Origin: Takakia lepidozioides
Taxonomy: Eukaryota > Plantae > Bryophyta
Direction: 5' to 3'
DNA length: 64,000 nucleotides
Assembly: GCA_030704615.1 (NCBI GenBank)
Contig: CM060731.1
Span: forward strand, 2,914,001 to 2,978,000
Part shown: one piece after another, positions 39,501 to 63,073 of the stretch
Numbering within the stretch: the stretch's first letter is position 1
Layout of the letters: every line of letters begins with the position of its first letter
Notes under the pieces: generated by a model
What the model saw: only the letters and a program-made list of their open reading frames with translations
The model's database searches: none
What the model was told of the DNA's origin: nothing
Translations under genes and position numbers: made by a program

Positions 39501-40068
39501 CTCCAACCGTTTGGCCCGTGAAGGTGGGAACACATCTCAGCTTTCAGGAGATTGAAATGCTGGAGGAGGCAGGTTTTTCCCTTGCGAGACAACCCCAACT
39601 CCATGCATGTGCTACTACTCCTGCGTCCTCCCGGGTCCCCCCGGCAAATCCTGACTTGTGGCCAACCAAACGAGATGGAAAGCTCGTTCGGCGTTTCCTC
39701 CAACCGCTGAACACTTTGGCAAAGTGGAGTCCGCAAGAATGCTCCAAGCTCGTGTTGGAAGCACCACGGAAGTACCCGATCCAGGATATGGTCGGGTATT
39801 CACAATCATCACTTCCACATCTGCTGTTCATGACAGGACCTACGACATCACGGTTTCCAATTTCCCCAATTGCACATGTCCTGATTTTGTGAATATGCTA
39901 TCAACCAGTTTGGGCAAGAGAGGTAAATTCATACCCTGCAAACATTTGTATTTCATATTTTTGAGGAGGATGGTTTGCGATCCCAAACGTGACAACTTCA
40001 TTCACCAGGCCACTATGAGTTTCAACGAGGTCGATACTCTTTTGCAGCGGGATACAACACATGGGTAG
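36561..40068 (+). pseudogene. Mutator-family DDE transposase with an N-terminal GCM-like zinc finger and a C-terminal SWIM finger; three frameshifts and one intron
   Basis: GCM-like region HPWCRTKTSN...TVCNGHLRCDNLNC...CKFC...CGAR...HFGFHNHP. Catalytic-like LMFDHVKR, GFMADSAQANFNAI, the MULE CxxH motif CLFHW, and SCNLAETVHNAW. SWIM region YDITVSNFPNCTCPDF...PCKHLYFI. GT-AG intron at about 38572-38683; frameshifts near 36925, 37130 and 39697. Confidence 0.85.
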
Positions 40069-43000
40069 CATGAACTATGTAATGTGGTATGTGGATGACC
40101 ATGATTTGAAATGTGTAATTCACATCAATTCGTCGGCTGTGCAATGATATGGCCTCCAACTATACGGAGTGAGGTCTGAGTGACAACTTTTAGGTAGTGC
40201 ACATTTGTCATTGCACCGTTCGAAGTCTACATGTCTTGCTGTCGCTATGCACTACAATCATCTTTTGAAGATGATCATAACTCTCATTGTTATTTGAGGA
40301 GGGAGGAAGTCTTCTCGTGGCAGCCTTTATGGCGCACACTTTGTGAGGATATTTTGTCGTCTTCGTAATTGTAAAAGTGAAACAAACATTTGTAATTGCA
40401 CAATGTTGGATGCTGCAATTGTAGGCCTCAACGCTCGTCTTGATTCTATTTAGGCAAGATTCCCTGCATTAATTCCACGGTCATAGGACCATCCACGGTT
40501 ATAGGCGGCGCATGTTAATGCTGACGTGGCAGTTGACGGACAGTGCCACGTCATCATTTACCGCCACATCAGCATGCTGACATGACGCTCACGCCACGTC
40601 AGCATGTGTGCAGGCTCACGCCACGTCAGCTGGCGTGAGCGTACGCTCACGCCACGTCACTCCTGCGTGAGCGTACGCTCGCGCGCTCACGTGCAACGCT
40701 CACGCCATTGCGTCGTTGGTTTGAAGTGTAAGGGCGTCACGAGTTTCACTTTTTCTGAACTGAGAGAATGTATGGTAGGGCTGAACGTTACGATGCTTGG
40801 TGTTTAGAAAAGACTAGTCCATCATGGCATGTGCGGGGTGCGCATTGAAAGAAGTCAATGGATAGTGAGAGAGAACCTTTCGGTTCAGAATCTTTCAAGG
40901 TGTACAGAGTATCTAAACTAGCGATGGCTAGAAGTACAATTCATAGGTCCTCGTTGATATGACACTAAGATTATTGTGTACATAAGTCAGCAAAGGTAGG
41001 GTGTCGATTTGTACTAGAAAGCAGTGTGGAGTGCTTAGTTTATCAGTATGGTATGAAGTCGAGCTGAACTGATCCATAGTTTCAGACGTAGGTTGACGAT
41101 ATGATCTGATCGTAGAAGGTATAGGAAGCTGAACGCCCTCTTGCATGAATCTGAACCCACATTCCATCCCTGCTCCTTCAGCTATGAACCTGCCAAGAGA
41201 GTGCATGCCAATTGTCCTTCTGAACTCTGCCCCAGTGGACATGTATTGTCGCGCACCTCACTTCGGTAAGCTCCCCTTCAAGTCATAGTTACTCGCTTTG
41301 ATGCATGCGCCTAACTCCCAAACTGGCCGCCGGGCCAACTCGGAGCTTCGGCTGCTCACCAAGACATAACGGTCCCTCTTTGCTCCTCCAGAAATTCCCT
41401 TTGGTTGTTGGCAGTCCGGAACAGCTCCCCACACCTTGGTCGCTTTCCGGCTCGCACGCTTACTCACTAGTTTTTGGTCACCAACGGGCTTGCACCGTTC
41501 TCGGCGTTACTACTCCCTATATATACTTCTGTGACTATCCACGGGGGTCTCACAAACAACCCAGTCATTTCATGGCAAACCACCACGAAGACCCTCGATT
41601 CCCGGTGATGAGTCGCGGTGCGTCTTGGCCCACCCACCACGGCCCCATTGGACCGTGATGAGTCCCCAAGACTCCCCACGACTCCCACCACAAGGTCTCC
41701 GCCCCATGGTGAGTCCTATGTCACCCCCACTAAGACCCACTAAGGTACCACCACCCCTCGTGGACCCACCCCCACCGCAACCCGGTGTGCGGGGCTCCAC
41801 CTAGTGAGCGCCTCCGCCTCCTTGAGTGCCTTGGGCACTCAAGGGTGCTTCAGCCTCCGTACCTATGCCATTGCCCCCACCACAGGGGCAGCCCCTCTTG
41901 TGTCCCGACCCCCTGCCCTCATGGCAAAGGGTCGCGACACACACCCCCACCAACAGGGAGTCGATGTCCTCATCGACTTGTCCATTTTGTAGAAACTAAC
42001 ATCCAAGTTGTGGTGTCCAACATCAAGGAGTTTGTTTCCGTACCATGGCATCCCATGGCAAAGAACCAAACCCCCACTTGACTCTACTCTCCACTAGCTA
42101 GTTTGGCCAACTTCCTCCAAGTCCCGGCCAAGGGTGGAGCCTCTCAAGCTCCACCAAGTGCACTCTTCCTTGGGAACGATCCTCCCCGAGGATCGCATCG
42201 CCTTGCTCCAAAAACATTGCTTGCGACCACTCATGATGCCACTTTTGGCATCACCTTGAGCAAGGGTTCACCTTGAACCCTTTTTTACTAGGAAGATAAC
42301 CTTGAACCAACCGCGCGCCCCAATCACTATAATTGGGTCCGCCTGGGAATGCTGGCCTGAGATACGGGAACACGCCGAAGCTGCACTACGACTTTGTCCC
42401 AAGGTTACACGATTATAGTACGTGAACGGAAGCACGTAACTTCCGCGTTAATCCGCACTACAAGACAACCCCTCGGTAGCGCAGTTATAGTACGCGCACG
42501 TGCCAGGTGCGCACTAGCACGTGAACTCCCAAAGAAAATGCGAGTTTCCTTGCCCCTTGGATGGGAGTCATCCGATTTCGGCACTGCGCAAACTCACGAT
42601 TAATCCAATTTACCTCTCCCACTTTTGTAAGCTAGCATGCATTCTACACACTAGCCAACACTATAGGAAAAAGAGGGCCTTTGCGACGCCGCGGCCACAC
42701 CGCAGCGTGGGAAAACGCCCTTTTCGGGCACGCGGCAAGTGCAGAATTTGCGACGCCCGGCCGTCACCAGGCAGTCGCATGGGCGTCGCCAAAATGACGT
42801 CGCAAAAATGCGACGTATAGGGGTCGCGAGCCCCCGCCCCAACTCCCCCGACTGCCGGACGTCGCTTTTCAGGCTGTCCGCGCCGATGGCAGGGGCCTCC
42901 GTCGAGCGACGTCTCGCCGTCGCGGACCTCCAGCCGACGGCGTTGGTGGGGGCGCCGGTGCGGCATCGCATCCATTTTTTTTTCTAACCTGCCCAGGAGT

Positions 43001-43182
43001 CCCATCCTAAAATCCAAAAACACGTGGCGTAAGCCGGGTGGTACGCCAAGCGACGCCAGTGCGTCGCTACAAACGACTATTGGGTGTGGCAAAAAAAAAC
43101 AGCAGGAGCAGGAGTCGGACTCCGCCACACCCGGGCGTGGGTTTTCGCGATGCTCTGGCGTTGTTTTGTTTTAAATTTAATC

Positions 43183-43214
<32 letters not shown>

Positions 43215-44306
43215 GTGGCGCAGGCAAGGTGGCGGGCTCCGCGACGTCACGGCGTCGCGGCTTGCGACCCCTGGACCAAAAAAACACGTCGCAAGGGGTT
43301 TCGGGCGTTGCCGCCCGCAAATGGGTTTTGCGACGCCCGACCGTCGCGGCTTGCGACCCCCTCCCAAAAAGCACATCGCCACTGGCGACGTCTTGCAGTC
43401 GCGAGGGCAGCCTGGTGGGGGGGGGGGTCGGGGGTTGATTTTGGGGATGAATTGGGGTGGTTTTTTGTTTTTTGCCTGGTTCTGTTTTTGGGGATGGGGG
43501 ACCTTACAGTTCCATTCTCTGATTTAGCAGGTACACAATTGAGCAAGCATGAATCGAGGGTGAGGACGGTGCGACACATGAATAAGATGGAAGATGGAAA
43601 GATGGAAATATATTTACAGGAAATGAGCTGAAAAGCTCACAAGGGTTCAGTAGGCTGACCCTGGGACCTACATGGACTAGGACTAGTCATCCTCATCCTC
43701 ATTCTCAGTGGAGGACTCAGAGCTATCCGATGAGCCTGATGACTCCGCGCCCCTTTGCCAGAGCACCTAAATGAGGCGGCGTTCCCCTAAGTCCCACAGA
43801 GCTCTCATCCAATCCCTGGCCATGACCCCCGACCTCATCCATACTAGTGCCCTGTAGTGCACTCATCCCCTCCGTGTTGGCCATGTTCTTCATGAGGGAT
43901 TACCAACCATGCTCCTTGGCGTAGTTGTACTCTACCGGAGATGGCTTCCTCGCAAACGCGCGTTGCTACACATGCCACAAATTAAAGTCAGTTCTTCACG
44001 ATGATGGAGCCAAAAAGAAGACATAACAAAATCCATAGGGAAGTACGACTTACAAATCGCAAGATAAAACCCTTGGATCCGTCGGCGCCCCACTTGTGTG
44101 TGGATTCGTGCTTGTCAAGGCGGACTGTTGTTGCTTCGCGTGCCCGGTCAAATTTGGCCTTGTTTGCGGCATTAGTCTCTCCCGCAATGAGTGCATCCCA
44201 CGATACCTATGCCCCCCCCCCCCCCCAACAATTAGTGAATTACACACATACGTTGCATCGAATCCACCTCATTAATGTACATGCGACAAATGGAAGGTGA
44301 CAAGAT

Positions 44307-44712
44307 TCAGGATTTGCCAACCTGTGTAATTCCATAAGGTGGTTTGGGTATGGCCCCCTTTTCCATTGCCCTCCGAATGATCTGTCTGGCACGGTACCTC
44401 CTGTCCTTCAAGTTTCGCCCCACCATCTCCATTACCCTTGTGTCACTCCAATTGCCCGGAAACCGGTGGTCTAACTCACGGGCATACGCCCGCTTCGCGC
44501 CAAAGTGCTGATCAGCCCACTCAATGTGCAAAGGGAACCTCCTCAATGCGAGTTCGAAGGCTGGCTTCTTCATAGCATCCCAGAACGCACCGCAGGGGTC
44601 ACCATGGCGATTCACCTCCACCGGTGGCACCACGATCTTTGCCAACTCCACGTCCTGTTTCGCCAAGGGCATGTTCTTCTTCCCACCCTCTCCCTTCTTT
44701 GTAGCCTCCTTC
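44307..44712 (-). pseudogene. CACTA tnpA-like (Ptta/En/Spm-type) exon fragment
   Basis: VEVNRHGDPCG...IEWADQHFGAKRAYARELDHRF...MVGRNLKDRRYRAR...KPPYGIT resembles TnpA-type proteins and lies downstream of tnpD on the same strand. Confidence 0.6.
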
Positions 44713-44714
44713 CC

Positions 44715-47700
44715 TGTTAGGAGGTCTGGGACTTAGGCATTTTTATGGGTTCTGTGGAGTCTGGGACTTAGACACTTCTATGAATTCTGAGGGTTACCCT
44801 TAAATTTTTGAGATAGCCCGTCACAGCCCGACACAGTCACAGACCGTCACAGCCATACACAGCCCAAACACAGCCCGAAACAGCCGTCACAGTCTGACAC
44901 AGTCGCACAGTCAGTCACAGCTGTCACAGTCGTAAGGAACGGTTATCATGACAGGGAACGACTGTGGTGAACAACATCTGCCGGGGAACATGTAATTCAC
45001 GGAGGACGGTTAGTGAAGGAAAACAGTTAGAACAGGGGGGAAAGAGATAAAGCGGGGAGCGAAGACGGGAGGGGATCACTTTTTTTGGGGATGGAGATCA
45101 TTGCTGGGGGACTTTAGCCACGGAGATTACTCCTGGGGAAGGACTAAGATCGAAGGAAGGGAAGCTGGCGAGGAGGAAGGAGATACTATAGGACAGAGTT
45201 AGTACGAGATGTAGGATTACTTAGAGGGATAGATTAGAGAAGTTAGGACATCAACATGTATCCGATTATGATTAATCTGATTCTCATCCGATACAAACAC
45301 ATTGTGTTGAGAGACTTGAGTGAAGCTGTGTATGAATGAAATCAGGGGGCCCAAGAAGCAATCTGACGCTTAAAAAGATACCTGGTCATGATAAACAGGG
45401 AATATAAACTGATAAGGAATATAATTGGAAACCCAACAATGATTCACTAGCTGCAGGTCATGACTGATTGTTTCACGCGGGCTGAATGCTTAGAGATATC
45501 CAACTCTTCTATCTTGGAGTTTCCCCCTCGGATAGCGAAGGGATGGGTGAGTAAAAGCCGTGTAACATTTGGCGACCATACTGGGGAACTGAGTCATGAA
45601 CAACCAGATGTGACAGGCATCTGGTGGGATCATGGTGGTTGGAGGATTAAAGAATTTGAAGTGAATCAAATTCCCTGTGGAACGAAGGAAGAAAGATTGT
45701 CCAAACAATTCTTTCAAAGGTTCTTGGAATTGCCAGACGGTTGTAAAGAAAATATTCTTAAGCGAGTGCATGATGCTGATCCGGAATGGGGTCTGGAGAA
45801 AGGAGTGATAAAGATTTATCAGGTAGCCTGTAGAGGAAGAGCACGGTGGTTACCAACATTGGTTTATGTGATAGCCTTACTATCTATTAAGCGGGTAAGT
45901 TTGAAAGCTGGGAGGAAAGGAAAGTGAATGTTTACACTCATATGCATGAGGAGCTTGTATTGGTAAAGAATTGGATTCCAAAGGATATCTTGTGGATCAA
46001 ACTTACACCAAGAACAGCTTTTCAGACTTGTTTACCATATGGTTATATGGTAACGGAGACTTCCAGTATAGCCAGAGGTACATTGAAGCTGGAAAGAAAC
46101 CCAGGCATATATGAGAGATACTACAGGAGAGAGTTTTGGTTGTTGCCACACTAAAAGAAATGAAAGATATGGGACATGAGTGATGAAAGAGAAGCTAGAC
46201 TCCAAAGATATTCAGCAAAAAGAGAAAGTTATCTGAAAGCTCATTATCCATATCTGTGGGAGAGAGGAATAGACATTGGGGAATCATCTGGACCTCTCAC
46301 ACCATTGAGATCAGGGAGTACATCACCTATACCAGAGGAGCTAGAGTTGGATACCACACCTTCTTTTTCTTTGCAAGAAAGATTAAGGGACTTGGTAGAG
46401 GAAGAAGATCAACCACGAGGTGAAAGATCTGAGGTACATCCCTGGATAAAAGATTTGGCAGAAATCTTTGATAAGGGTTGGCATGGAACACCAAGAGCAG
46501 GAACTCCCGTTTCGGGAGCAGAAGAGGAGGATGCAGAACCAGCGGAGAGTTCAAACTCTCCAACATTATTACAAAATAGTTACATGAGTGAAGAAGAAGA
46601 AAACCAAGGAAAGAAATTGGAAGATGAGGAATATGAAGAAGTAGACCCAGCAGCTGAGGTTGAGACTACAACCAGGACATCCCAACCCGTTGGACCTGGA
46701 TCAAGTGGAGCACTTGGATCACAGGCCAACGAAGGTGTCGGCTCAGAGGGATCAGGCGAAAGACCTGGATCTGGCTCTGGGGGGACAGGGAGTGTGGAAA
46801 GTAGTGCAACTGAGGCTGGGAATACTGTGAATGTAGAAAGGCCAGGAGCAGGAAGGGTTCAGGGGCCAGTAATTGGTGGAAGAACCACCACAAATACTAC
46901 AGGTCCACAGGGGCCAGCATCAGCCAAAAGGCCAACAACTGTCAGGGGGCAGAGTGTAGGGTCGCAGATGGCGTTACAACCAACACGGGCTAAACCACCT
47001 TTTCCGATATATTCAAGGAAAGGGGATCCTGATGTACACATTAGCCAATTTGAGCACATGTGTATAGTGAACAATGAGAATGGCAATGATGCCAAGATGA
47101 GACTGTTTCCGTGTTCACTTATAAAGAAAGCCAGTGAATGGTATGCAAGATTCCCTGATAATCATTTCCTAACCTGGAATGGCTTGAGTACAGCGTTCCG
47201 AAATAGGTTCAGGACCAGTAAAACTGAGGATGAAGTGTATGGGAGTTTACAGCAGCTGAAGCAGAAGAAGCATGAAACTGTTGAAGAGTATATGGAGAAA
47301 ATGGAGTTGATGATGAAAAAGTTGGCTGCTATACCAGCACCAGGATTGCAGAAGGCTTGGTTTGTGAATGGACTAAGGCCAGAGTTGCAAAAGAAAGTAG
47401 ACATGTTACCCCACAATACAGTGGAGGAGGCATTTGAAACAGCAAACAGAATTGAGCAGTTGGGAATGCTCAGGAAGGAGAAAAGAGATGAAGAGGACTC
47501 TGAGGATGAGTCAGAAAAAGAAGAGGAGATGGAGCATAAGAAGAAGAGTAAAAAGAAGGAAAAGATGAAGAGGGAAAATTATGAGAAGAGATTAGAAGAA
47601 ATCTTGCAAAAATATGCCACAGAGGCTGCAACACATTGGAGGAAGGGTGTTTGGTGTGCAAAATGCCAGAATGAAGGCCACACCACTACTGAATGCCACA

Positions 47701-50700
47701 TGAAGGAGAAACACTGCACTATCTGTAAAATGGATAACCATTCTACAGAGAATTGTTACTACAACAGAAGAACAGCAGTAAGAGAGCCTAGGCAGGTAAG
47801 GGTGCATCAAGTGCAACCCCAGCCAAGAAGAAACAATGATCAAGACCACTGTGGTAGGACAGGTGGTTATAACAATGGCATGGAAGGAGAGGTAATCCAA
47901 GAAGGAATTACCAGGGACATCCCAGGGGTGGCTATCAGGGTAATCCAAGAGGGAATTACCAGCCAGGGAATCAGGATTACAGAAATAATCCCAGAGCAGA
48001 CCAAGGGCGAGGACCCAATGGAGAAGAACTGTGTTACTATTGTAATCAGACAGGACATCATAAGGCGGCTTGTCCATTCTGGATCAGACACCAGAATGAG
48101 ATGAGAGCTCCTGGGAATGAGGGGCCAGTAGTGGCAGCCCACATGGTTAGGCCATGTATTGTATCGGGAGTGAGTACAATGATAGTAACAAGAAGCAGAG
48201 CCAAATTAGTACCTCCAGTGGAAGATGAAGTTGATGATAATGAAGATGGCAATGATGTGCCTGAAGATGATGAGGCTTGGAGAGATGAGAAGGAACTGCA
48301 CAAGGAAGTGGCGGATACCATACGGGAAATGCAAAAGAGTACTGATATTCCCATGGTAGACTCCTCAGACTCTGAAGGAGAAGAAGAAGTCAGTGAGGAA
48401 GAAGGAAAGAGGGAAGCTGCAGAAGTGCAGGGTAAGGAAGGGACATTGGCTGAAGTGATATGCCAGTCCAAAGTGGAAATTACCATTGGACAGCTATTAG
48501 CTGTGGCACCTTATTGTAGACACAGGCTGTATCAAGCAATCAACAGGATTGCCCATTTGACAGAGAACACAGACCTGAACAGTAAGGTGACCAGTTATAA
48601 TGTGAGGCCAGAAGGGCAAGAAACAGTCATGGATTTTGATGATTCTATGCCAGTTATCCAGTTGAGAATTGGAAGCACAGAGCTGGCAGATGTACTGATA
48701 GATGGAGGCTCTGGTGTGAATATCATGACAGACCAATTGAGACAGAAGCTAGGTCTAAACAACTTGAAACCAGCCCCATTTACAGTAACCATGGCAGACC
48801 AAAGGAGTGTACAACCATTGGGATTGATCATTGGAGTTAAAATCCAGATTCAAGAGATGATCTTTAAGATCACAGTAACTGTGTTGAAGATGAATGAAGT
48901 CCTGGAAGCTTATTCCTTATTGTTGGGAAGACCATGGCTGAAACAAGCCAAGGTGTCTCATGATTGGAATTCACAGTTACTGACTGTGCAGGATGGGTTG
49001 AACAAGATACAAATCACCACTAAGAAATCTGAAAGACTATCTGCTACAAGAAGACCAAGAGGGGTCAGAGAGTATGATTGGAAAGAAGGACTGGATGAGG
49101 AACAGGAAGCTATTTTGTTCGCTGCACACCCAGAGTGGGAATAGGTTGCAGAGATGCAATTAGAAGGCCTGAGTTGTTTAAAAAGTATCTACTGTGGTGC
49201 AGTGACAACAACCCCAATTGAGGAGGAAATAAATAGTTACCCACCACATTTTTATGAGGAAAGGGAAGGAGAGATTGATATCCTAGAGGAACCAGCCACT
49301 GTAAGTCTACAGGATGAAATAGTAACTGGTTGGACAATCACAGCTGATGAGCAGGTGAGGGAAGTGAATGTGGGAACTGAGAAGGAACCAAGGATGGTGA
49401 AGGTAGGGGCGGATCTAGAGCCAGAATTCTTTGAGGAAGCAAAGAGTCTGTTCATTAAATACAAAGATGTATTTGCTTGGAGCTATGAGGATCTGAAGGG
49501 GATACCACCTGAGATCTGTCAACATAAGATTGAACTGGAACCAAGATCAATACCAGTTAAACAGGCGAGATACAAGATGAATCCCAACTATGCAGAGAAG
49601 GTTGGAGAAGAGATCAAAAAGTTGGCTGAAGCTAAATTTATATACGCGATAGAGTACACAACTTGGTTGTCACCCATTGTGATAGTCCCCAAGAAAAATG
49701 GCAAACTAAGAGTTTGTGTGAACTACAAGAAGCTGAATGCTTGTACGAGGAAGGATCCTTTTCCTCTACCATTCACAGAAGCAGTATTGGACACTGTGGC
49801 AGGCCATGAAATGTATTCATTCATGGATGGCTTCAGTGGTTATAATCAAGTACAGGTGGCAGAGGAAGATAAAGGAAAAACAGCTTTCATCACAGACTGG
49901 GGTGCTTATGCATACAAAGTCATGCCTTTTGGACTTTGTAATGCACCAGCAACTTTCCAGAGAGTTATAAGTGAATCTTTTCAGGAGTACCTTGATGATT
50001 TCATGCAGGTGTTCTTGGATGATTTCAGTGTGTATAGCTCTAAGAGTGAGCACTTACATAAATTGGAGTTGTGCTTGGCCAGATGCAGGATGAGAGGTCT
50101 GGGCCTGAATCCAGAGAAATGTACTTTCTGTGTGAACTCAGGGGTACTTTTGGGACACATAGTGTGTAAAAAAGGACTTCTAGTGGATCCCAGAAAGACG
50201 GAGGCCATTAAAGCCTCCCCACCTCCAGTAAATGCTAAGAGTCTAAGGAGATTCCTGGGACAAACCAGCTACTACAGAAGATTTGTCAGACGGTATGCAC
50301 AGATGGCAGCACCTTTGAGCAAACTTTAAAAAAAAGACGTAGTGTTTGCATGGACAGATGAATGTCAACAGGCTTTTGAGGAACTGACATTGTCAATGAC
50401 AACTACACCTGTATTGATTAATCCTCACTGGCATGAAATGTTCCATGTTCACTGTGATGCTTCAGGAGAAGCATTGGGAGCGGTGCTAGCCCAAAATGTT
50501 ACAGGAATGATAGATTCATCTGTGTACTATGCTAGCCGATTAATGAACAATGCTGAAAGAAATTATAGCACAACAGAAAGAGAAGCATTGGCAATGATCT
50601 ATGCAGTGAAGAAATTCAGGCATTACCTGTTGGGTAAGAAGTTTATGTTCTATGTGGATCACCAAGCTTTGATATACTTGGTAAACAAACCTCTGATAAG

Positions 50701-52100
50701 CGGAAGAATAGCAAGATGGTTGATAATCTTACACGAATTTGAGTTTGAGGTTATTTACAAGCCTGGGAGGCTGCATCTTGTGGCGGACCACTTGTCACGG
50801 TTATCAACAGGTGAACCAGCCACAGGAGTAGATGATCAATTACCAGATGCGAGCTTATTTGCCGTGGAGGTGCAGGGAAGTGCAGATGATTGGTTAGATT
50901 GGCAATGGCCAATCAGAAACTATCTTACTCATGGTCAATGTCCACCGAGTTATGGGAAGGAGCAGAGAAAGAGAATTGTTATCAAGGCTTTACCTTACAC
51001 TATGGTAGGAAGCAGAATGTATAAGCTAGGACCAGATGGAGTGCTGAAGCGATGCTTATACCACCATGAAGTTGATAAAGTTTTGGAAGAAATTCATAAA
51101 GGAGTGGCAGGGGGCCATTTTGGAGAAGAGACTACCAGTAGGAAGATACTACTTGCCGGTTACTGGTGGCCTACCTTGTTCAAAGATGTGCACAAGTATT
51201 GTAAAACTTGTGATGAGTGTCAGAGGCTAGGACCATTGCAGAGGTCTGGAAAGATGGCTTTGCATCCTACAATGCCTACTGAACCATTTCAGAAATGGGG
51301 ACTGGACTTTGTTGGACCAATAAACCCACCAGCCAAGAATACACAGAACAAGTATATAATCACAGCTACTGATTATACTACGAAGTGGGTGGAAGCTAAA
51401 GTTCTGAGGGACAACACAGCTAAGTCCACAGCCAGGTTCCTGTATGAGAACATACTTACACGGTTTGGCCGTCCCCTGGAATTTATCAGTGATCAGGGAA
51501 GTCACTTCATCAATGAGACCATAGAACTCTTGACTAAGGAGTTCATGATTGTGCATAGGAAAAGTACAACCTATTACCCACAAGGTAATGGACAGGCAGA
51601 GGCTACCAACAAAATACTATGTACCATCTTGGCTAAAATAGTCAAACAGAACAGACTGGGATACAAAGCTACTGACAGCTTTGTGGTCATACAGGACTTC
51701 ATATAAAGTCACCACTAAGTATACACCATTCCAATTAGTTTATGGTATGGAAGCTTTACTTCCAGTGGAGTTTTTATTACCTACTATGAGAACTGAATGG
51801 GGAAGAAGAATGGAATTGGAAGATTCAATTAAGGTCAGGAAACATGAATTATACCATATGGAGGAAGTACGAGCTGATGCAGCTGACAACATGACGAGAA
51901 TACAGATGAAAAGGAAGGATCAGTTTGATGAAGGGAAGTTGAAGACTTTCAAAACATGAGATTTGGTTTTGTGGTTGCAGAAGAAGGGAAAGATTAAGGC
52001 TTCTAAGCTTAAATCGCCATGGAAGGGACCTTATGTCATACAAAAGATGTATGATAACAACACGGCCATGTTACAAACCATTAACAAAGAAATACTGGGC
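44715..52100 (+). mobile_element. Ty3/gypsy LTR retrotransposon (non-chromovirus-like), 3' LTR missing
   Basis: gag-PR-RT-RH-INT order. A putative 5' LTR with (cacagcc)-type repeats lies at about 44715-45260 (limits uncertain). The integrase C-terminus abuts tnpD at about 52100. Confidence 0.88.
46176..52099 (+). pseudogene. Ty3 gag-pol polyprotein with frameshifts and stops
   Basis: gag GDPDVHISQFE...LFPCSL..ASEWY...TWNGLSTAFRNRF with CCHC knuckles; protease VLIDGGSGVNI; RT FMDGFSGYNQ and FLDDF; RNase H CDASGEALGAVL...YSTTEREALA; integrase HHCC and WGLDFVGP. Confidence 0.93.
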
Positions 52101-55100
52101 AGTAAGCCGAGGTGGATATGTCGTGGGTCCTCCAAGAGAAAAGGCCACATCTCTTCAATATGCCTCCATGCTTGTGAATCTTGTGGCCCGCACACCTTTC
52201 CCGAGGGGCTCCGATGCGAGGCGTGCCATCTCATGAGTTTGGCCAATTCGGGGCTTCGGTACTGTGCCCTCAATCGCGGGATGATTGGAAAGTAATGCAC
52301 TTTCTAGGATGAAATACCCCACGCCCCCCGCATGTAATCATCTCATTATCACACATAATACAACACCCTTATGTCTTTCCCTTTATGCAGCCTCTCCCTC
52401 GTTTGGGTGTGAATGGTCAAAACCGAACGTCGCTCCTTCCACTCCTCACTCACTCTTTCCAAAACCACAATCAGATCTTGCGTGAGTACTACTCTCTAAA
52501 CCCTAAACTTTGTGGAATACACTTTACATACATTGAGAAGATTAAAGAAAGTAATCTCCATGCGAGGGGGAATGACGCTTATACCTTGCGTGGTTCTTTT
52601 TTATCTTGGACATCATCCCGATATCGGTCTTTCTTGCACTTTGGGCACTTGGTGAGACGCGAATCATCTCCGTAGTATAGGGTTTTATTACATGGACATG
52701 CATGAAAAATCTTATAGCCCATCCCCACAGAATCCAAGACTTCGCGCGCCTCTTTCCGCAACCGTGGCATCTTGGGTTTCAAGTTTGGAGCAATGATATA
52801 GTCTGCAATAGTTCGCATTATGGCAGACATCCCAACATTACTTATGCCAAATTGAATTTGAAGATTGAGCAAAAGTAAGATTGTTGAAAGTCGACTCACT
52901 TTCGCCCCTTCGTACAAGGGAGTTCTCGCCTCCCTCTCCATGTCATTTGAGGGGGCCATTTCAGGATCATCGATTGGCCGGGTTCCCTCTTCATGGGATG
53001 CATCAGCGCCCACATGATGCATTAAGAGATCCTTCATGGATTGCACATCCTCCTGATTAATTCCATGCTCATTCTTGTTGTCACTGCCACTGTCACTGTC
53101 ATCGTCATCATCGTCCGATACCGTGGGGGTGGCGTCTCACCCACGGCTCTCGCCTGATGTACTTGGGTTGTTTTCGGATGGGGTGCCAAGAGAAAGGACC
53201 GGGAAAAGATGGACAAAGTCCTGATACGAACAAATGTCGAACATATTATAATGTGTCCTTGCAAACATACACTTCATTATAAGCGAAATGCAAACAACAA
53301 CCTTCAATGTGTGCGTGCATCAAATATGTCATTCAATAATTACATGTATGTGCGCAACGTACACGCATGCAAAGTTTCAATCCCAAACAAAATCATTTGC
53401 TCCCAAATGACGCATTCACCCTATCAACCAATTTTTGTTTATTAATGTGAAAGAAAATCCTCTCATGCCATTGCACCCAACAAACGGATGTGGCTCAAGC
53501 TTCATTTTTTCCTAAATGTGCTTAAATATGTGTGCAACACCTATACAAAGATCCAGAAGAAAGAAAAAAAAAAAAAACCTCCCCAACGACGCACTCACCC
53601 TTGCACCAATTTTGAATTAAATCGAATTTAAAATAAATATTTGCATTTAGAAAATATATGATTGCGGTTTTGAGGGGCGTAATTATTTTATTTTTAGCTC
53701 TATTCTGCTATGTGACATCAGGCTTTGCACCACTACATCCACGCAAAAAATGGGACAAAAAAAAATGGAAAACAAATAAGTGTGCTTCTAGGGTCACTTT
53801 TGCAGAACTCTCTATGAAGAGTGCATGAAATTGAAGATAACTCAACTTTGGAGTGCAAATGGAGAACAAAATCTGGTTATGGGTCCAAATGACTTTTGTT
53901 TACTCCCAAATTTTGCACGCACATTGCATATGCTATCATTAAGCATATGCTTGAAAAATGGAAAAAAAAAAAAATCATCTGCAGGCGAAACATAATTTTC
54001 CGTCTCTATGACACGTAGCACTTTAGAACTCGTATGATGCAAATAGTTCGCTGCCAGCCCTAATAGTCATACTAGCATATGTCATCACAAATATATGCAT
54101 CCCCTCATAGTATACTGACGTATGACCACAAAAGCTCTCATGCCCATCGCTTCGCTCGTCCCATACTACATTGGTTCTCCTAGGATGACCAAAAGAACTA
54201 TTGACCAGCCCAGCAACATTGCCGAAGATATCGGGGTCACCAGCACAAAATCTGCTCTCAATGGGAGACAACCCCCATCTACGTACATCTTGTCCGTTGA
54301 CACACAAAATGTAGGGTAGGATGTATGGGGCTTCGAGGCGTAATGTACGGAACTCCGCGGAGATGTACTATGGACCGTAGTAGGGAAACAAGTCCACCAT
54401 GTTGTTTCTCCGAGGAGGAACCACAATATCATTGACCGTGAATAAACCCTGACCCATAGTCGGGTCTGTAGCGGCTTTCACAACATACCGTCTCCCCCAA
54501 TACTCGAACTCCACATTTTCTCGGATGGGGGTGGGAGGGTCGAGATGATTCCCCCGACAACGAGGCTAGATGGTCCTTAGTAACATAGTCATATGCGCTT
54601 CCCATCGGGGGCGAGGATCCGGCTCAGGCCGCCCAAGCTGATGGGGAGGAAACATAGGGCGAAGCCGACCCCTCCTAGGGGTTCGGGGGGCACATGCACG
54701 TGGAGGTGGAGGTGGAGGTGGTACTGCTGGCGGAGGAGATGAAAGTGGAGGTGGTTGAGGATGTAATGTCGGAGGTGCAGCTGGGGGTACAACGTCCGGA
54801 TCAGGCAAAGAAACAGACGGGGGATGGGGGGGGGTGGGCCTGCTCATCGCCGGCCATAACGCCTACGACACTTACGATACCCCTCGACCCTACGCATCTC
54901 ATCTACGGGCTGCTGGGGGAACCAACTGGTCATATCGGGCACATGCTCTGGCACAAATTCTGCAAGTAGACCGACGCGAAATGCCTCTTGTGCAATGTGA
55001 TTGCGAGCTTGGGCATCAAGTCGTGGCTGCAATGTGCGTAGTGAACGACGCATCAATACTTATGTCGTAATTTTGATTCATGTATGCTTACCTATTATTA

Positions 55101-55340
55101 GATAAACCTAAATGTACCTTAAATTAATGTTAATGAGAGGGGTGGGAAAAACACTCACCTTTGCCGCATCCGCAATCTTGTTTTTCTTGTAATGTTTTTC
55201 GACAACATGTGGTCGCCACCTCGGTGGTTTGGTGCCGCCCGTGGTATCCGTTCCCAACACTTAGTGCACCAACACTCAATCCTGTCGAGGGGGGGGGGGG
55301 GCGGGGGGGGGGGGGTCAAAGGTGGACGTGGTTGGACGGG
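52100..55340 (-). pseudogene. CACTA tnpD (Tnp2/Transposase_21) N-terminal half
   Basis: ARTPLYEGAKVSRLST...GMGYKIFHACPCNKTLY...CPKCKKDRY...PRKV|MHYFPIIPRL...LMRWHA...DSQAWRHI...DPRHIHLGL. An upstream exon RIECWCTKC...RMRQR (donor 55158) joins in phase to an AAG acceptor ending at 53258. Truncated before the catalytic core. Confidence 0.88.
54023..54490 (-). pseudogene. SET-domain (lysine methyltransferase-like) coding region inside the CACTA element
   Basis: One frame reads YVVKAATDPTMGQGLFTVNDIVV...LFPYYGP*YISAEF...YILCVNG...GDPDIFGNVAGLVNSSFGHPRRTNV...IFVMTYASMTIRAGSELFASYEF. This matches SET motifs GxGL, YxG, GNxxxxNxS and IxxGxELxxxY, with one internal TAG. A Pro-rich segment lies upstream (54566-54847). 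Confidence 0.75.
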
Positions 55341-56917
55341 ATGACCCGCAAGGGGGCAACCCGCGGCGCGCCTGACTCGATCCCGGAGTGTCAACATCCT
55401 CCGCATCACCTGAAATTTGGCCCCGGTCCCTACTATGATTGTGCCCGACAGCTTGTATTGGATCAGGTGCAATGGGTGGCTCCTCGCCATGAAAAATGGT
55501 CGCTCTAGGGCCACAATCGATATGTGGTACTACCTCCCCATCCTCAAGGGAGACGGGTCGATGTTTCCTCACCATCGCATCCTAATTAACACACACCACC
55601 AACACTTTCATTTCTCAAAAACCGTTGGTAAAAAAACCTTATGCCTCAGCCTCGGGGTTTTCAAAATTGGTAACCAAAGGCGGAGCATCCCTATGGTGCT
55701 AGAGCCCAAGATAATAATCCCTTCCTCTCGTTCTATCTTTAGGATACCCACACCATGGAAAAATTTGTTGAGACCCAGCGCTTTGCGATTATCAGATTGA
55801 ACCACATTTTGGGTATGTGAATCATAATTACACCGTTTATCCTTTTAACCCTAAGACCCATAACCAAAACCGCCAATCCAAAACCCAACACCATAAAGAA
55901 AAGCAAACACCCTAACCTAGTACCATATGAAAAAAAAAATTAAATTAAATAAAAACTAAGAAACCCAAAAGGACCTAAACCCTAAACCCAGAAAGGCCGG
56001 CAATCGCCTCCTGCGACACCCTCGCGTCGCATTTGACGACGAGTTTTTTCAATCTTTTACCTGGGGGTCGCACCCCGCGACGGCAAGCCGCCGCGGGGGG
56101 CGACGTGTTTTTTTATTTATGGGGCCGAGGGTCGCAAGCAACGACGGCCGGCCGTCGCAAATATCACTTTTACATTTAAAAAAAAGGGCGGGGCGCAGGC
56201 GTGCGACGGCCGGGCGTCGTAGGTAGGCGCCGCGCTTTTTTTTTTTCCCTAAGTGCTTGAAGCATCTCTTTCCCCTCCCGTTTCGTTTGTTCTTTGGGAG
56301 AGAGGTAGTTCAGAGAGTGGGGTTTAGGGTGGAGGAGAAACGCACCTGCTGCTGAGCCCGAGGTGGTCGCAAGGCCCCAAGGAGTTTGCCCCAACGCCGC
56401 TCCAACGCCCAAGGTAAAGCACCGCCTCCTCCCTCACTTTCTGTCTTGCTTTCTTGCCCTAAGCACGGGCTGATGTCTCTCTCCTTGTGTGGTAGGAACG
56501 CCGCGCAGAGGCGCGATCTAAACGAGCTGAAGAGAGAGAGAGAGCCGCGGTGAGCAGGGGAGAGACACCCTGCTGCGGCGGGGACCCACGCTGTTGGCAG
56601 CCGCCGGGTACCCGGGGTGAAAATCCGGACCCGCACAACACTGTCGTCGATGTCGTCAATGATCATCCTGAAATCATGATCTTGAAAAAATTGAGTGTGT
56701 TGACGCACTCAGTTCTCCGGGGGGAGGGGGGGGAAAGAAAGTTTTTTTTTTTTTTTTTTTTTTTGTCTCCCCAAATTTGCCGGGTACCCGGGGTCGCACC
56801 TATCATCGATGATCATCCTGAAATCATGATCATGAAGAAATTGAGTGCGTTGACGTACTCAATTCTCCCCCGGGGGGGGGACCGAAAAAAAGTTTTTTTT
56901 TTTTTTTTTGGGCCCCC

Positions 56918-56948
<31 letters not shown>

Positions 56949-57499
56949 ACGCAGAATTGAGGTTGTCAACGCACGGGGGGGGGGGGGTGGGGCGGAAAAA
57001 AAATAAAAATAAATAAATAAATAAAAATCTTATCTGCCTAATGCCCGCTTAATTCCCAGCCCTGTTTTCCTCCACGAACATGGCAGTTCGCTAAAGTTAG
57101 GGTTAGGGTTTGAGGTTCTGATTTGCAGTGTTTCCCCGGTTTGCCGTGTTTGCCGTGTTTCTGCGGTAATGACGTCAGCTTAATTCCCAACTTGTTTTCC
57201 TTCACGAACATGGCGGTACGCTAAGGGTTAGGGTTAGGGTTTGTCGTGTTTGCTGTGTTTGTCGATTTGCCGTGTTTCCGCGGTAATGGGTGCTCATCCG
57301 CGGAAATACACCCTGCATCTTCCCCCATTCTCGTGCCACGTGGACTGGGCTCACGTCAGGCTCTTGGGCTCACAGGCTCCTGGGCTCGCGTGGCTAGGCT
57401 CACACTCTAGCATCCCCCCGTAGCAGCAGAGGTACGTCAGGGAAATTGCACTCTCCTTTTCCTCTCTGCTTCTATTTATTGTTCAAAGGTAGTCTTCTT

Positions 57500-58865
57500 G
57501 CCCTGAGTTTAAATTTCGGTCTGGTGCCAAGAGTGGGATAGACCCTTGAGCGCATCCATGATGTCCTCCCCCATGTCACAGACTGGAAACAGGTTCAGGG
57601 AAGTTTTCTTCCTAACTTTATTTTCATCGGACAATTTTCTGGTAACAGACATGGCTTTGGACACTACACTCTCCAAGTCAGGTTTATCCAGCAAGGTCAA
57701 GACTTGCGGGTCCAGATTCAGATCCTTGAGAATCTCTTCTACTCTCTTCTCCCAGGGCTTACCCTGTTTGACAGGGCGGTCCTGTTTCCAAGATATAGAG
57801 TCGATTAACTTAGGATATCTGGTGTTGGACATATGTTACAGCTGAACCCACCAACTGACCTTGAATTTATCTCGTCGGGAGTTTAAAAAAGAGCAGCACA
57901 GAAGAGAGGGAGAGAGAGGGAGAGGGAGAGAGGGACAGAGAGGGACAGAGAGAGAATGAGAGGGAGACATCAGGGGGCAACAAAGAAAAGAAAAGAAGGT
58001 GGGGGTGGGAGTGACTGAGCAACTGCTGCTGCTCAGTCACTCCCCACCCCCCCACATTTTTTTTTTTTCCTTTGTTGCCCCCTCTCTTGGGGAAACAAAA
58101 GGGACAGATCCTATCTTTGTCAGGGGCGACTTTGGTAGTAAGACTTACCTTCACATATAGAATTAATCCGGGTTTTCTAGATATTCTCTACAAATCCATT
58201 CACACAAGCATCAATCTGTTGTGTGTGAGTTGCCCAAAAACTAGGCCTCAGAAGGGGCTGGGCTTTTGGCTCAGCCTCGACTTTTTCAAAGTTAGTAAAT
58301 AGAGGTACATGCATAATTCCCTTGATAGATTTGAAGAGAGCGTCTCTTTGGTGAGAGAACCCCGGACAATATATCAGAAAATGAATAATGTCTTTAGGTT
58401 GCCCACACAACGGGCAATTACACTCTCCCGATCCTCTCTGCTTCTGTTTGCTTATCAAAGGAAGGCTTCCTGCCCCGAGTTTAAATTTCAGTCTAGTGCC
58501 GAGAGTGGGTAGACCCTTGAGGTCATCCAAGATCTCCTCCCCCATGTCATAGACTGGAAATAAGTCCAGGGAAGTTTTTTGCCTAACTTCATTTTCATCA
58601 GACAATATCATGGCAACAGGCATGGTTGGACACTACAGCCTCTAAGTCAGATTTATCCAGCAGGGTGAAGACTTGCGGTTCCAGGTCCAGGTCCTTGAGA
58701 ATCTCTTCTACTGTCTTCTGCCAGGACTTAGCTTGTTTGACAGGTTGGTGGGCGGTCCTGTTTCCAAGATATAGAGTCGATTAACTTAGGATATCTGGTG
58801 TTGGACATATGTTGCAGCTGAACCTACCATCTAACCTTGAATTTATCTCGTCGGGAGCTTAAAAG
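57500..58865 (-). mobile_element. Two tandemly duplicated 3' fragments of a non-L1 LINE (RTEX/L2-like C-terminus)
   Basis: 57500-57890 and 58090-58865 share the same junction (gttggacatatgtt.cagctgaacc...tctcgtcgggag) and encode KTSLNLF...KFKL.AGSLPL...CPLCG...HFLIYCPGFSHQR. Confidence 0.7.
57900..58086. repeat. Fold-back hairpin unit (GA-rich arm, GAGTGACTGAGCA..TGCTCAGTCACTC core)
   Basis: Near-perfect inverted repeat at about 58000-58055; a related unit occurs at 59833-60010. Confidence 0.75.
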
Positions 58866-59419
58866 AGAGCAAAACAAACAGAAAAAAAAATCTTTTTTTA
58901 CTGTTTGGGGGAGAGTCGTCATCTCTCCACAAGCCTAACCGTGCAGGGAGGACTCCGCCAGCATCACAGCACTGCTACCTTAACCAAAGCAATTCTTGCC
59001 AAGCACAAGAAAAAAGAGCTTGGTCTCAAAATGTAGGGTTTATAAAGGGAGGGAAAGAGACTTCCTTGTTCTACCAAGACGTCGCCATTCATCAAGGATC
59101 CAGAGGAGGGCTCCTAGGGAAACGTCATAAGCATGCAGGTGGTACCTCCGCCATCACTGCCGCGGTTCCCTTGTGCAGCAAAAAAACAAACAATTGAGAC
59201 AGTGAATCTTCCCTCATCTCTAAGCCACCGCCATCGCCTTAAAGAGCCCGCCTAGGTGGCGCTCACAGGAGCCCTAAACACTCAAGGATTGGTAGCTCAA
59301 GGTATCTGCAGCATGAGCACCGTCGCTCCTCCCAAGCCGCCATCGCGCGCGTTCTCGCAGCGCAAAAAGAAAGACATTAGGGTTGCGCAGGGTTTTCCCC
59401 TGTCTGGCCCGTCATTCAT

Positions 59420-60590
59420 CCTTCTCAGGATGAAAAACATCTGCCAGCCTGTACGCCCGACGGACGTTGTCCGTTTCTCATTCGCGGAAGATGAAAGACA
59501 TTGTGCGTTCATCCTGTCTTGAACTTGACGGACGCAGTCTGCATTTCATCTAGGTTAGATGAAAAACATCGGGGGTTTAAAACAACTTTTTTATACCTGT
59601 CTTGCCCCATATTTAGGTCCTATCAGATGAAGTCCTTTTTCATCCAGGTTGGATAAAAATTGACGGGAGTTTTGCAACTCATAGGTATTTAGTGAAGAAA
59701 TGTTTCACTAGGGAAAAATTTGTATTTTGGATTAAAAAAAAATCCAAAATTCCCTGCAACCCATTTTTTCAATTTTTTCAATTTTTTCAAAGATGGAAGT
59801 CGGGACAACAATTCCATAAACCCAGTTTCTAGAGGGAGAGAGAGGGAGAGAGAGGGAGAGATCAGGAAACCAAAAAAAAATTAAAAAATTAAAAAAATGG
59901 GGGGGGGAGGTGACTGAGCAGCTGTTGCTCAGCAGCTGCAGCTGCTCGGTCACTCCCCCCCCACATTTTTTTTTTCTTTGTTGCCCCCTCTCTCCCTCTG
60001 TCTCTCTCTCTATTGGGAATTGGCAGTTTGCTATCAGTGTTGACTTCTTGTTTTCTCATCCTCTATCGGCTTTTTCATCCATACCGGATGAGCCACCAGG
60101 ATGGACACTGAGTTACCGCTAGGATGGTTCTTTTGGCTTTTTCATACCTCCTTTATTGACTCTCATCCATACCGGATGAGTCTCCATGGAAGAAAAAAAT
60201 TACCTCTATGGAGGTTGCCAACAACATCCTGTTTTTTCATCCATACCGGTTGAAAAACTACCAGGATAATATTTTTTTTCATTCCTCTTTTATTGACTCT
60301 TTTATCCATACCAGATGGTCTGGTAAGGAATGATAAAATTACCTAGATGGAGGTAAGACACTGCCACGGATGATATTCCCTATTTTTCATCCTGACATAA
60401 GTGATCTGTCTATGGATGATGTGATTATGGCCTGGAATTGATCTTTACTACCCCTAATTATGATTAATTACGGTGGAAACCCTAACCCCTACCCCAAAAC
60501 CTATTTTTAACCTTGTTGCGGATGAAATCCGTCGGGGTATACGGATGCATCCTACTGTTTTTCATCCACAGATGAAAAATCGGGGGACAA
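59420..60590. repeat. GGATGA/TCATCC-rich subterminal-type repeats with CACTA-like termini and a second fold-back hairpin
   Basis: Many ggatgaaaaa / ttttcatcc / tcatccataccggatga units; ...TAGTG ends at 59694 and CACTAGGGAAAAA starts at 59706. Confidence 0.5.
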
Positions 60591-62357
60591 AAAACTCTAT
60601 GTCGTCTCTCCCGCTGTCAGAAGCACGCGATGTGCTTTTGAGCTTGCGAGGAGAGTGTTATAGCGGACGTGCTTTGGTGGCTGCCCCATTTGTGGTGTCG
60701 TACCCATGCTGGACGAGCGCCTGAGGGGGCGCGAAGGCGGCGCCTTGTCTCTCTTGCAGCGGGAAACACTGCTATGAATGCAATGGCATCTTCCCTCCTC
60801 TGGCTTTTTTTGTACTTAGCAAGGGCGCTTATGCTAGGAAGTTCTCTCCCTCCTTTCTAGTGCCTTGCGATTGTGCCTGCTTTGCTTCATTGCTTATGTG
60901 CTTTGTGGCGGCGGCTTGCTGCGGGTGGTGATGGCATATAACCCTCTTCCCCAATCGCTTAAGGTGCCTTTGGAGTTTAGGGATTCTCATGTTCTTATCT
61001 TTTTCTCTTGCTTTTGAGTTTCTTAGTTGACATCGATGACAAATGTGAGGGTTTGTGATTCACCGGGGTTCCACAATCCTCACTAACCTGTTGGTTTTTG
61101 TGGGGGCTTGTGATGGGACCAGGTGAGGATCCTCACCTACTTTGAAGTTTCTTGAGCATGCAGATTGGGATATGGGCTGAGGAGACCTATGGGTTTTGCG
61201 CTGTGAGGTGGCTGCTGCCTGCAGCCCCGATTTCAACCCGACTGCCCCTGGTTTGGCATGCTACAGCCTGCGTTTTGGCCTTTGTCGTTCTGCCGCCGAT
61301 GCGCAGCTCGGCCTGACTGGCCTGTTTCCTAAGGCTTGCATACAAACCATACCCTACCTTTTGATCTTTGACAACAAGGCCTGTGGATTATTGAGCTAGG
61401 TTGTAGGCTCTTTTGGCCGAAGAGGATCTGGTTTTTGGTGGTATGTTTTTGGCGGTTTTGGGTGTCTATGGACATGGTAGCCTTGAAGGTTATGGCGGCA
61501 GCCTGGTAGGGCACCGCCCTGCTCCTTTTTGGGCCTGCTTCTGATTTGTACTGGATCATAGTAAGGTGTTCTTTGCATGTTTTAGCATGGAACTCTTGAA
61601 GGATGAGAATGGGATCCTACCTATAGTTTTGGCTCTGTCATGACATCAGGCCTATGACCTGCAATCTGGTTTTTTATATACAAAAGAGGCTGGATCTCGG
61701 CTGTTCATGCTACTTGTTTGTACAAATCTTGAACCTGCAATTTGACAGGCTGAATTCACATTCCCTTGACACCTTGTATGATCACATGTCTCGAGGTGAA
61801 TACAAATAATATGGAATTTATTTCATCTTGCTCAAGTTGGACTGCTTGGTGGCATACTGAGATTCTGACAAATTGCAGGCTGGTCCTTATGCCTTGGCTA
61901 ATGCATGACCTGCCATAATTAATGGCTGAAAAGGTAGGTTGCTGCAACCCGTGGGTCATGTCCAAGACGTATGTGTGAAAATGTGTCTTGAAATGGTAAT
62001 AGGGCAGGCTGGACCATGGTACCCTGCCCCTTGTATAACCTCGGCACTTTTGTGCTCCTTCAATACTTGACCTGCTGGTAAGGTATGTGTACAGGCTGAA
62101 CCAAGAGGCCTTGCAGCCTGAACAGGGACACCAATATCTTATCTTGTCCCACACAAGAACAAACCCCGCCCTCCCACCCTGTTTTGTCTTGGATGATTGG
62201 GTGGTGTCTTTTGGGATGATTTGACAAGACTGGAAGTGTGAGATAGTGCCCTATTTAGGGCTGTTTATGTCTTTAATTGACAATGACCCTTATGGGTCCT
62301 GTCCATGTCTTGACATGACGTGAATATCTTCCCTCTCTCTTTTTAACTTTTTCTGCA

Positions 62358-63073
62358 GAGGGGTCGACTCTGAGGTTAAGAAAACCATGCTTTGTCGCAT
62401 TATTAGACCTGTCTTGGAGTATGGATCTGCAATATGGGTTGATAAATCTGACTTAGAGACTGTAGTGTCCAAAGCCATGTCTGTTGCCATGAGATTGTCT
62501 GATGAAAATGAAGTTAGGCAGAAAACTTCCCTGAACTTATTTCCAGTCGGTGACATGGGGGAGGACATCTTGGATGACCTCAAGGGTCTACCCACTCTCG
62601 GCACTAGGCTGAAATTTAAACTCAGGGCAGGAAGCCTACCTTTGAACAACAAACAGAAGCAGAGAGGAAAGGGAGAGTGCAATTGCCCGTTATGTGGGCA
62701 ATCTGAAGACAATACTCATTTTATGATACACTGTCCGGGGTTCTCTCACCAAAGAGACGCTCTCTTCAAATCTATCAAGGGAATTGTGCCTATACCTCTG
62801 TTTACCAACTTTGAAAGTCTCAAGGCTGAGCCAAAAGCCCAGGCCCTCCTGAGGCCTAGTTATTGGGCAAATCACACACAGCAGATTGATGCTTGTGTGA
62901 AGGGATTTCTAGAGGATATCTGGAAAACCCAGATTAATTCTATATATGAAGGTAAGTCTTACTACCAACGTCAGCCCTTGACAGAGGCAGGTTCTGTCCC
63001 TTTTGTTTCCGCTCAAACTGGGCGCCGGGACAATGGCCACCAGGCTACGACAAACAACGTCTTATGAGTACAA
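62358..63073 (+). mobile_element. Short LINE-derived insertion (RTEX/L2-like) with a 20-bp TSD
   Basis: Identical tctttttaactttttctgca at 62338-62357 and 63074-63093. ORF 62387-63067 has the RT-thumb motif LCRIIRPVLEYGSAIW joined to a C-terminal CPLCGQSEDNTHFMIHC zinc finger. Confidence 0.85.

Follow-up and report, generated by a model that had tools for sequence, protein, structure and literature searches.

The 64,000-nucleotide stretch of the moss Takakia lepidozioides analyzed here (contig CM060731.1 of assembly GCA_030704615.1, positions 2,914,001 to 2,978,000; hereafter the window, with coordinates counted from its first letter) contains a plant CACTA transposon of a high-copy family, here as a dead copy whose genes read on the minus strand. 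The original prediction for this locus, made from the bare sequence, was that the element carries a SET-domain gene within its transposase gene. We find that the SET segment is an exon that, in contigs likely to derive from RNA, is spliced to the first exon of the transposase (TnpD) gene, that it very probably belongs to the whole transposon family, and that it may supply the element with a lysine methyltransferase.

The transposase gene and its SET exon

The shared first coding exon (55159..55580, minus strand) opens at ATG 55575 and encodes an acidic/Pro linker and a CxCxxC...H zinc knuckle (IECWCTKCW); its phase-0 donor, GTGAGT at 55158, is in the same frame as the ATG. Pfam family PF13963 (Transpos_assoc) gives no match to this exon in the window. 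The SET exon (54023..55026, minus strand), assigned from its frame, from contigs and from a fold model as an alternative last exon of the transposase gene, begins at the AG acceptor 55028-55027. Its N-terminal helix-like stretch (PRLDAQ..., 55026-54847, minus strand) is followed by a Pro/Arg-rich linker and then by the SET domain (about 54601-54023, minus strand) with the motifs GxGLF, PYxGxxY, Y, GNxAGxxNS, N, and ELxxxY. The SET-like motifs quoted in the original prediction are present, in one minus-strand frame at 54565-54023 after a Pro-rich stretch, and the segment does lie where it was placed, between the CxCxxC exon with its donor at 55158 and the transposase body.

Contigs from four of the ten listed sequencing runs were compared with the window; none of the runs is on record as RNA, and X8 and X9 are likely RNA. 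They define a GT-AG intron of 132 nucleotides (nt) between the shared exon and the SET exon (55027..55158, minus strand). One X8 contig joins 55159 to 55026, with CT..AC ends on the plus strand and 59 letters on its short side. The identical joint occurs in one X9 contig, which represents a diverged copy and whose 30 letters between the joined parts are the 30 bases before the donor. The joint 55159/55026 reads in frame from the knuckle exon into PRLDAQ.... We conclude with high confidence that the SET exon is spliced to transposase exon 1, in frame with the zinc knuckle; the alternative splice product that had been suggested as a possibility is borne out by this junction. The window copy itself is frameshifted twice in exon 1, by a longer poly-C tract and by one base missing at 55242. 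Across 55254-55435, one X8 and one X9 contig are each 22 nt shorter than the window, and one X9 contig has one additional nucleotide at 55242; because the 22 nt extra and the 1 nt missing sum to 21 nt, the frame opens through the CxCxxC knuckle.

For TnpD, phase points to alternative use of a far acceptor, 53221: the AG at 53222-53221 is in phase with the phase-0 donor 55158 and runs directly into the transposase frame. The acceptor first proposed, 53258, was rejected in its favor, since it is in phase only in the frameshifted reading of the window and, with the phase-0 donor, leads to a stop after three codons. TnpD exon 2 (52585..53220, minus strand) encodes an acidic linker followed by TPLYEG...SRLS and CPC...CPKC, a pattern that we take to be typical of plant CACTA TnpD; it contains one TGA near 53139 in the window copy and has no match in Pfam. 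A remnant of the next TnpD exon (52112..52300, minus strand) matches positions 2-30 of PF02992 (Transposase_21) with E 0.013 and 15.2 bits, below the curated cut-off. X8 and X9 have no cover at 53393-53635 and 53150-53230, which we do not count as evidence.

Identity of the SET domain

The SET frame of the window, with stops read through as X, has no match in Pfam, PDB sequences, or the word index, and its identification comes through its relatives. An exhaustive protein search with the window SET returned 58 relatives at E ≤ 0.001, 21 of them at E ≤ 1e-10, with identities of 27-54%. PF00856 (SET) matches 37 of the 58 at E ≤ 0.1, with 19 above the curated cut-off. Thus, the hidden Markov model search that had been proposed as a check recognizes SET in the relatives but not in the window copy itself. 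A profile of 35 relatives, from which the window row was excluded, scores 153.5 bits at 54601-54020. The rest of the window stays at or below 3.4 bits, and the highest-scoring of 1000 shuffles reaches 4.7; the 153.5-bit score is partly circular, as the relatives had been found with the window sequence. The family profile also matches SET structures among PDB sequences (best E 1.2e-4).

A model predicted from the 36-row alignment has a predicted local distance difference test (pLDDT) score of 87.3 and a predicted template modeling (pTM) score of 0.82. In structural comparison by VIA-align, its neighbors include SET8 (Z 12.6, root-mean-square deviation 2.3, 121 aligned), Set1 (12.1), PRDM5 (11.8), and EZH2 (11.6); 44 chains reach Z ≥ 8, and those listed are all SET/PR types. 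Every Foldseek row shown against PDB is likewise a SET methyltransferase, including SET8, ATXR5, MLL1, and SET7/9. Taken with the Pfam matches of the relatives, the model makes it virtually certain that the exon carries a SET fold.

The canonical SET motifs are GxG, N-H-x-C-x-P-N, and E-L-x-x-x-Y. Among 35 relatives, each from a separate 50%-identity cluster, Y67, Y85, N132, and E173 are invariant (35/35 each), and G38 (34/35), G40 (34/35), and the final Y178 (32/35) are nearly so; N122, the Asn of the cofactor motif, is kept in 29 of 35. Motifs this close to invariant point to long-term constraint on the domain. Compared with known minimal SETs, the family has its own N-terminal W-G-R strand and an inserted helix. 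No DNA-methylase family of Pfam is found in the 58 relatives or in the window SET exon.

Presence in the family and decay of the window copy

The DNA run X1 has 7446 contigs on the 4-kb stretch 52300-56300. Over the SET domain, their summed depth, which is no copy number, amounts to 53,000-86,000, and in transposase exon 2 to 79,000-108,000; single listed contigs have 45-95. This depth indicates that the SET exon is carried along by a highly repeated family, and we regard it as almost certain that the exon is a regular part of that CACTA family. The proposal of a transposon-borne SET domain is upheld by the X1 depth, the 58 relatives, and the fold. Neither outcome that had been named as refuting it was obtained: SET is recognized in the relatives, and the segment, far from occurring in this copy alone, belongs to a repeated family and is not close to a named host gene.

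The SET exon of the window copy is interrupted by TAG at 54370-54368, TAG at 54568-54566 (after YYGP), and TGA at 54846-54844, and its reading frame shifts near 54830. In X1, the sense base makes up 80,992 of 81,466 in depth at 54368 (∼99%) and 8,166 of 8,604 at 54568 (∼95%), so both TAG stops are private to the window copy. One X8 contig spans 54025-54803 with 43 differences and no gap, and it has sense codons at both TAG sites. T>C and A>G changes account for 93 of 181 variable places in X1, and the reverse changes for 29, an excess from which we infer methylation-driven decay of the window copy. We classed 31 of the 40 differences shown (31 of the 43 in the X8 contig; 54514 and eight rows at 54872-55453 were excluded, and 65 rows lie beyond): 8 are silent, 21 are missense, and 2 remove stops. 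Seventeen differences are common to X8 and X9, of which 3 are silent.

Contigs depart from the window sequence at 54827 and 54803. Six contigs, five of X2 and one of X8, diverge from the window at the stop codon of the SET exon (loose end at 54025), and the X2 consensus past this point, read by hand, keeps the frame open for at least 10 further codons without a Cys. The TAA after YEF may therefore be private to the window copy, and the C-terminus of the family may be longer than it is here.

Relatives in other genomes and databases

A pattern scan with alignment A3, which holds 13 of the 58 relatives and detects close relatives only, found three loci (L001, L002, and L003) among 184 metagenome stretches; the 57 stretches from viral contigs and the 48 from prokaryote genomes yielded no locus. 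The window SET protein itself, compared with metagenomes, gave 97 stretches and no confirmed locus. Both L001 and L002 encode a basic N-terminus and a CxCxxC...H exon, followed by a phase-0 GT-AG intron (144 and 156 nt, respectively) and a SET exon with a stop. PF13963 matches the knuckle exon of each below its curated cut-off (E 1.1e-4 in L001 and 7.4e-4 in L002). In L001, a second phase-0 acceptor lies 1176 nt from the donor, before an acidic exon that ends in ...SSLYE (compare TPLYEG in the window).

Among the database proteins, P0006, P0008, and P0038 combine a Cys knuckle and a SET domain in one chain. In P0023 and P0003, the SET domain ends just before the final Tyr, and an acidic tail follows in the same frame; the tail of P0023 continues into transposase-like sequence (E 3e-8); this arrangement is either a third splice form or a gene-model artifact. 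A profile search of the word index retained one of 2659 candidates, the Ginkgo gene model Gb_21150 (P0054), which is the only named relative. We note that this seed-plant member of the SET family, which may be a transposon copy or a domesticated gene, has a different Cys/His-rich N-terminus. A tree of 36 SET cores, which has no outgroup and places the window row on a weak fork (77/80), is uninformative on origin. By features, the nearest neighbors of relative P0018 are an unnamed cluster (0.97) and giant-virus SET clusters (0.96), and viral models match at a template modeling (TM) score of about 0.5. We treat a giant-virus origin of the SET exon as a lead only.

The rest of the element and its surroundings

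Inspection of the sequence places the 3' terminus at 42659..43400 (plus strand), with a clear terminal repeat (CACTATAGG...) at 42659 and with subterminal repeats rich in GCGAC; 21 GCGAC/GTCGC motifs lie within 42500-43500. The 5' subterminal repeats (55990..56260, minus strand) were located by blastn and are inverted relative to the 3' set, with an inverted match of 43327-43406 to 56161-56073 (72% over 89 nt, E 1e-8). Clusters of GCGAC at 42500-43500 and 56000-56500 thus provide the subterminal repeats of a CACTA/EnSpm element. A degenerate sequence, CACTTAGGG at 56255, has 3 mismatches in 14 and is a candidate 5' end only: its flanks and those of 42659 show no matching 3-bp target duplication, and DNA contigs extend beyond it to 56283. 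A Ty3/gypsy retrotransposon sits inside the element in the opposite direction (44740..52110, approximate limits, plus strand), recognized by the Pfam domains Retrotrans_gag (E 1.3e-12), RVT_1 (E 1.2e-27), RNase H (E 4.6e-32), and rve (E 9e-12). Because it cuts the transposase immediately behind the start of PF02992, the window copy has no transposase DDE core. The decayed last exons of a TnpA-like product likely occupy 43700..44732 (minus strand), as judged from position and from an open frame at 44732-44307; Pfam gives no match to them. Within the transposase intron, 53780-53990 has a summed depth of 282,000 in X1 and many loose ends, far above its surroundings, and is likely a separate, more widespread small repeat.

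Elsewhere in the window, exons at 30400-35900 (minus strand) and 37096-40068 (plus strand) carry motifs that we take to be ParB-like (YVWDGNHR) and N6/N4 DNA-methyltransferase-like, near a SWIM-finger transposase-like gene. Neither Pfam nor PHROGs gives a ParB or DNA-methyltransferase match at 30400-40068, and SWIM matches with E 0.0015. This mix of motifs recalls the PAG2/PAG3 cargo of red-algal elements considered below, and it is probably what the original prediction had counted as a first chromatin-modifier-like cargo. Dispersed near-palindromic repeats of the TGAATGTCGTCAACGACATTCA type (families D4 and D7) lie between those exons at 32400-33140 and 35000-35330 and could be binding sites of that element's protein. 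A host YODA-type mitogen-activated protein kinase kinase kinase gene occupies approximately 4200-10430 (minus strand). Among the 120 listed of 217 matches to one 80-residue exon of this gene, the named matches that are nearly full length and most similar come from the mosses Physcomitrium (67%) and Ceratodon (68%, over 90% of the query) and from Riccia (65%), and seed plants mostly reach 54-63%; as far as one exon can tell, this places the host among the land plants and likely among the bryophytes. The window also holds at least three 3' fragments resembling long interspersed nuclear elements, in both orientations (57400-63070), a second retrotransposon gag (26480-28099), and tandem repeats of 67-68 bp and about 180 bp (15670-16200 and 17770-18300).

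Proposed function and alternatives

We propose that one transcript offers two in-phase acceptors after the shared first exon. Use of the near acceptor, 55027, would give a protein composed of the knuckle, the helix, the Pro/Arg-rich linker, and the SET domain, and ending there; the far acceptor, 53221, placed by phase, would skip the SET exon and give TnpD. The SET protein is predicted to bind S-adenosylmethionine (SAM) and to methylate lysine, and we consider it probable that the exon encodes an active enzyme of this kind. The shared N-terminus, with its basic stretch and knuckle, could bring the protein to the nucleus and to the element or the TnpA/TnpD complex, where it would write a mark opposing host silencing, a role that TnpA and VANC fill without an enzyme. 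We lean slightly toward this chain as a whole, in which the spliced SET protein is a lysine methyltransferase that marks histones on the element's own copies and so counters silencing; for histones on the element's own chromatin as the target, we put the chances at about even. A wider scenario, in which an old, widespread land-plant CACTA lineage (bryophytes and a Ginkgo gene-model member) took up a giant-virus-type minimal SET as a splice switch, and the self-targeted histone writer overwrites host silencing, is offered as tentative and is rather less likely.

A number of observations weigh against the proposed function or the splicing on which it builds. X8 and X9 are separate studies whose RNA status is guessed, each of their exon 1-SET joints is supported by a single contig, and a joint of exon 1 to the transposase is absent among the contig joints listed for them. 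The downstream exon of L001 was called transposase from its position and one motif only and has no significant BLAST match to the window transposase exon, and L003 has no knuckle exon within its 1104 bases, so that the knuckle is found in two of the three loci. The contig rows shown do not settle if the window copy alone has the TGA at 54846 and the shift in frame near 54830, and the mix of silent and missense differences fits neutral decay of this copy and says nothing on selection in the family. As regards the protein, Ser stands in place of the canonical N-H motif's His in 34 of the 35 relatives. The post-SET cysteine zinc cluster (CxCxxxxC) is missing from the window, in agreement with the original prediction, and from all 32 relatives that have the final Tyr, and the tail beyond that Tyr is short (median 8 residues); with neither a long tail nor this zinc cluster, the cofactor pocket may be incomplete. 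The fold singles out no substrate class, since the top rows lie within 1 Z, and both catalysis and substrate are predicted.

These points bear first on what the protein does. The spliced SET protein could act on a non-histone substrate, such as TnpD, TnpA, or a host silencing protein, or could write a repressive, self-limiting mark. Minimal SETs that have no pre- or post-SET parts include non-histone enzymes such as SET7/9, and SET8, Set1, PRDM, EZH2, and SUVH6 are ranked within about 1 Z of each other. A self-dampening mark is also conceivable in a bryophyte, as transposable elements there are described in one preprint as repressed via trimethylation of histone H3 Lys27 (10.1101/2022.10.24.513474). 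We nevertheless consider this reading unlikely, because the N-terminus encoded by the shared exon is basic in the window as well as in L001 and L002, nearly all of the top structural neighbors are histone enzymes, and other chromatin cargo of DNA transposons has been interpreted as anti-silencing (PMC12730594). Somewhat less likely still is a SET-fold pseudo-enzyme that would serve as a decoy or tether by binding histone tails or SAM. The replacement of N-H by N-S would suit it, as would tails of which several end 2-5 residues past the final Tyr, and the weak Pfam scores, with 21 of the 58 relatives unmatched, many of them fragments. Against this stand the Gly pair, both internal Tyr, the Asn, and the final Tyr, which are near-invariant across clusters below 50% identity, and a solved bacterial SET protein with Phe at the His position (by alignment) for which a histone-peptide complex is recorded in the title of the PDB entry.

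The two remaining alternatives deny the SET exon its place in the transposase gene or its function. The separate intron-less gene of the original prediction, nested in the transposase intron with its own promoter, would account for a SET domain contained in a single exon and for the many database relatives called as stand-alone open reading frames, but gene callers blind to introns are expected to produce such calls. The exon starts at the acceptor 55027 and is joined to exon 1 across the 132-nt intron, this joint recurs in two studies, and L001 and L002 both retain the phase-0 acceptor; a nested gene is thus improbable. CACTA elements do pick up host fragments, and a passively captured host SET exon of the Pack-CACTA type, with no function, would sit well with the decayed state of the window copy. 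The presence of the exon across the family and the same intron position in distant elements argue strongly against it, and the shared phase-0 layout of L001 and L002 leads us to reject simple capture of a host exon. Identity between the window SET and the 35 relatives of the tree does not exceed 37%, and no named plant SET gene was found as a near match (0 of 36 in the word index; in the profile search 1 of 2659, which is the Ginkgo model of the same family). We therefore regard passive capture as very improbable.

Relation to known systems and significance

SET-carrying transposons are already published for other groups, and what sets the present case apart is a SET exon that shares the first exon of the transposase in a plant CACTA element. 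According to the preprint on Bostrychia, the accessory gene PAG2 of red-algal Plavaka elements (EnSpm superfamily) encodes a SET domain together with an N6-adenine methylase; the same preprint cites Helitrons and HarbingerS for the capture of SET (10.1101/2025.02.11.637652). SET genes in HarbingerS and MuDR of the oomycete Phytophthora are cited in another study (PMC12730594). As described in the Bostrychia preprint, PAG2 resembles the window family in that a SET domain rides on a DNA transposon of the EnSpm superfamily with a proposed role in chromatin modulation. However, it is an accessory gene beside the transposase locus, it includes the N6-adenine methylase, and it belongs to the three-gene PAG1-3 cassette, whereas the SET of the window family is an alternative exon sharing transposase exon 1 of a canonical plant CACTA, with no DNA methylase. 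HarbingerS, MuDR, and Helitrons, as far as these sources describe them, are alike in having a transposon-borne SET but differ in superfamily, in host, and in carrying it as an accessory gene.

A parallel in gene organization is provided by maize En/Spm and Arabidopsis EN/SPM3, where TnpA and TnpD arise from one gene by alternative splicing, and the TnpA of Spm3 causes hypomethylation of its own family, according to the main texts (PMC13547354, 10.64898/2026.08.24.746577). In those elements, as in the window family, one CACTA transcription unit gives a transposase and a regulator by splicing, but their TnpA is a DNA-binding factor, while the extra splice product of the window family is a predicted enzyme. 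Plant anti-silencing examples such as VANDAL/VANC and Spm TnpA are likewise described as working via sequence-specific binding proteins. The term "SET domain" is absent from the main texts of PMC13547354 and 10.64898/2026.08.24.746577, and the available part of PMC11982613 has nothing on SET exons in plant CACTAs. Among titles and the starts of abstracts, a set that includes few subscription journals and neither Repbase nor supplements (annotations there may hold it), no report of a SET exon sharing transposase exon 1 in plant CACTAs was found.

Human SET8, plant ATXR5, and giant-virus SET proteins share with the family a compact fold without a post-SET zinc cluster, but at only 12-23% identity in structural alignments. 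SETMAR (Metnase), a primate host gene in which a SET domain is fused to a domesticated mariner transposase, and whose SET domain is row 31 of the VIA-align list, also combines SET and transposase sequence in one gene. Unlike the window family, it is a host gene and not mobile cargo, and it joins in one chain what the window family offers as alternatives, the SET domain and the transposase core.

How DNA transposons escape host silencing is an open question. If the proposed reading is true, a conserved SET enzyme expressed by alternative splicing would be a transposon-encoded histone writer in a plant CACTA element. It would add an unclassified SET clade to plant genomes, and it might offer a compact, self-targeting chromatin tool.

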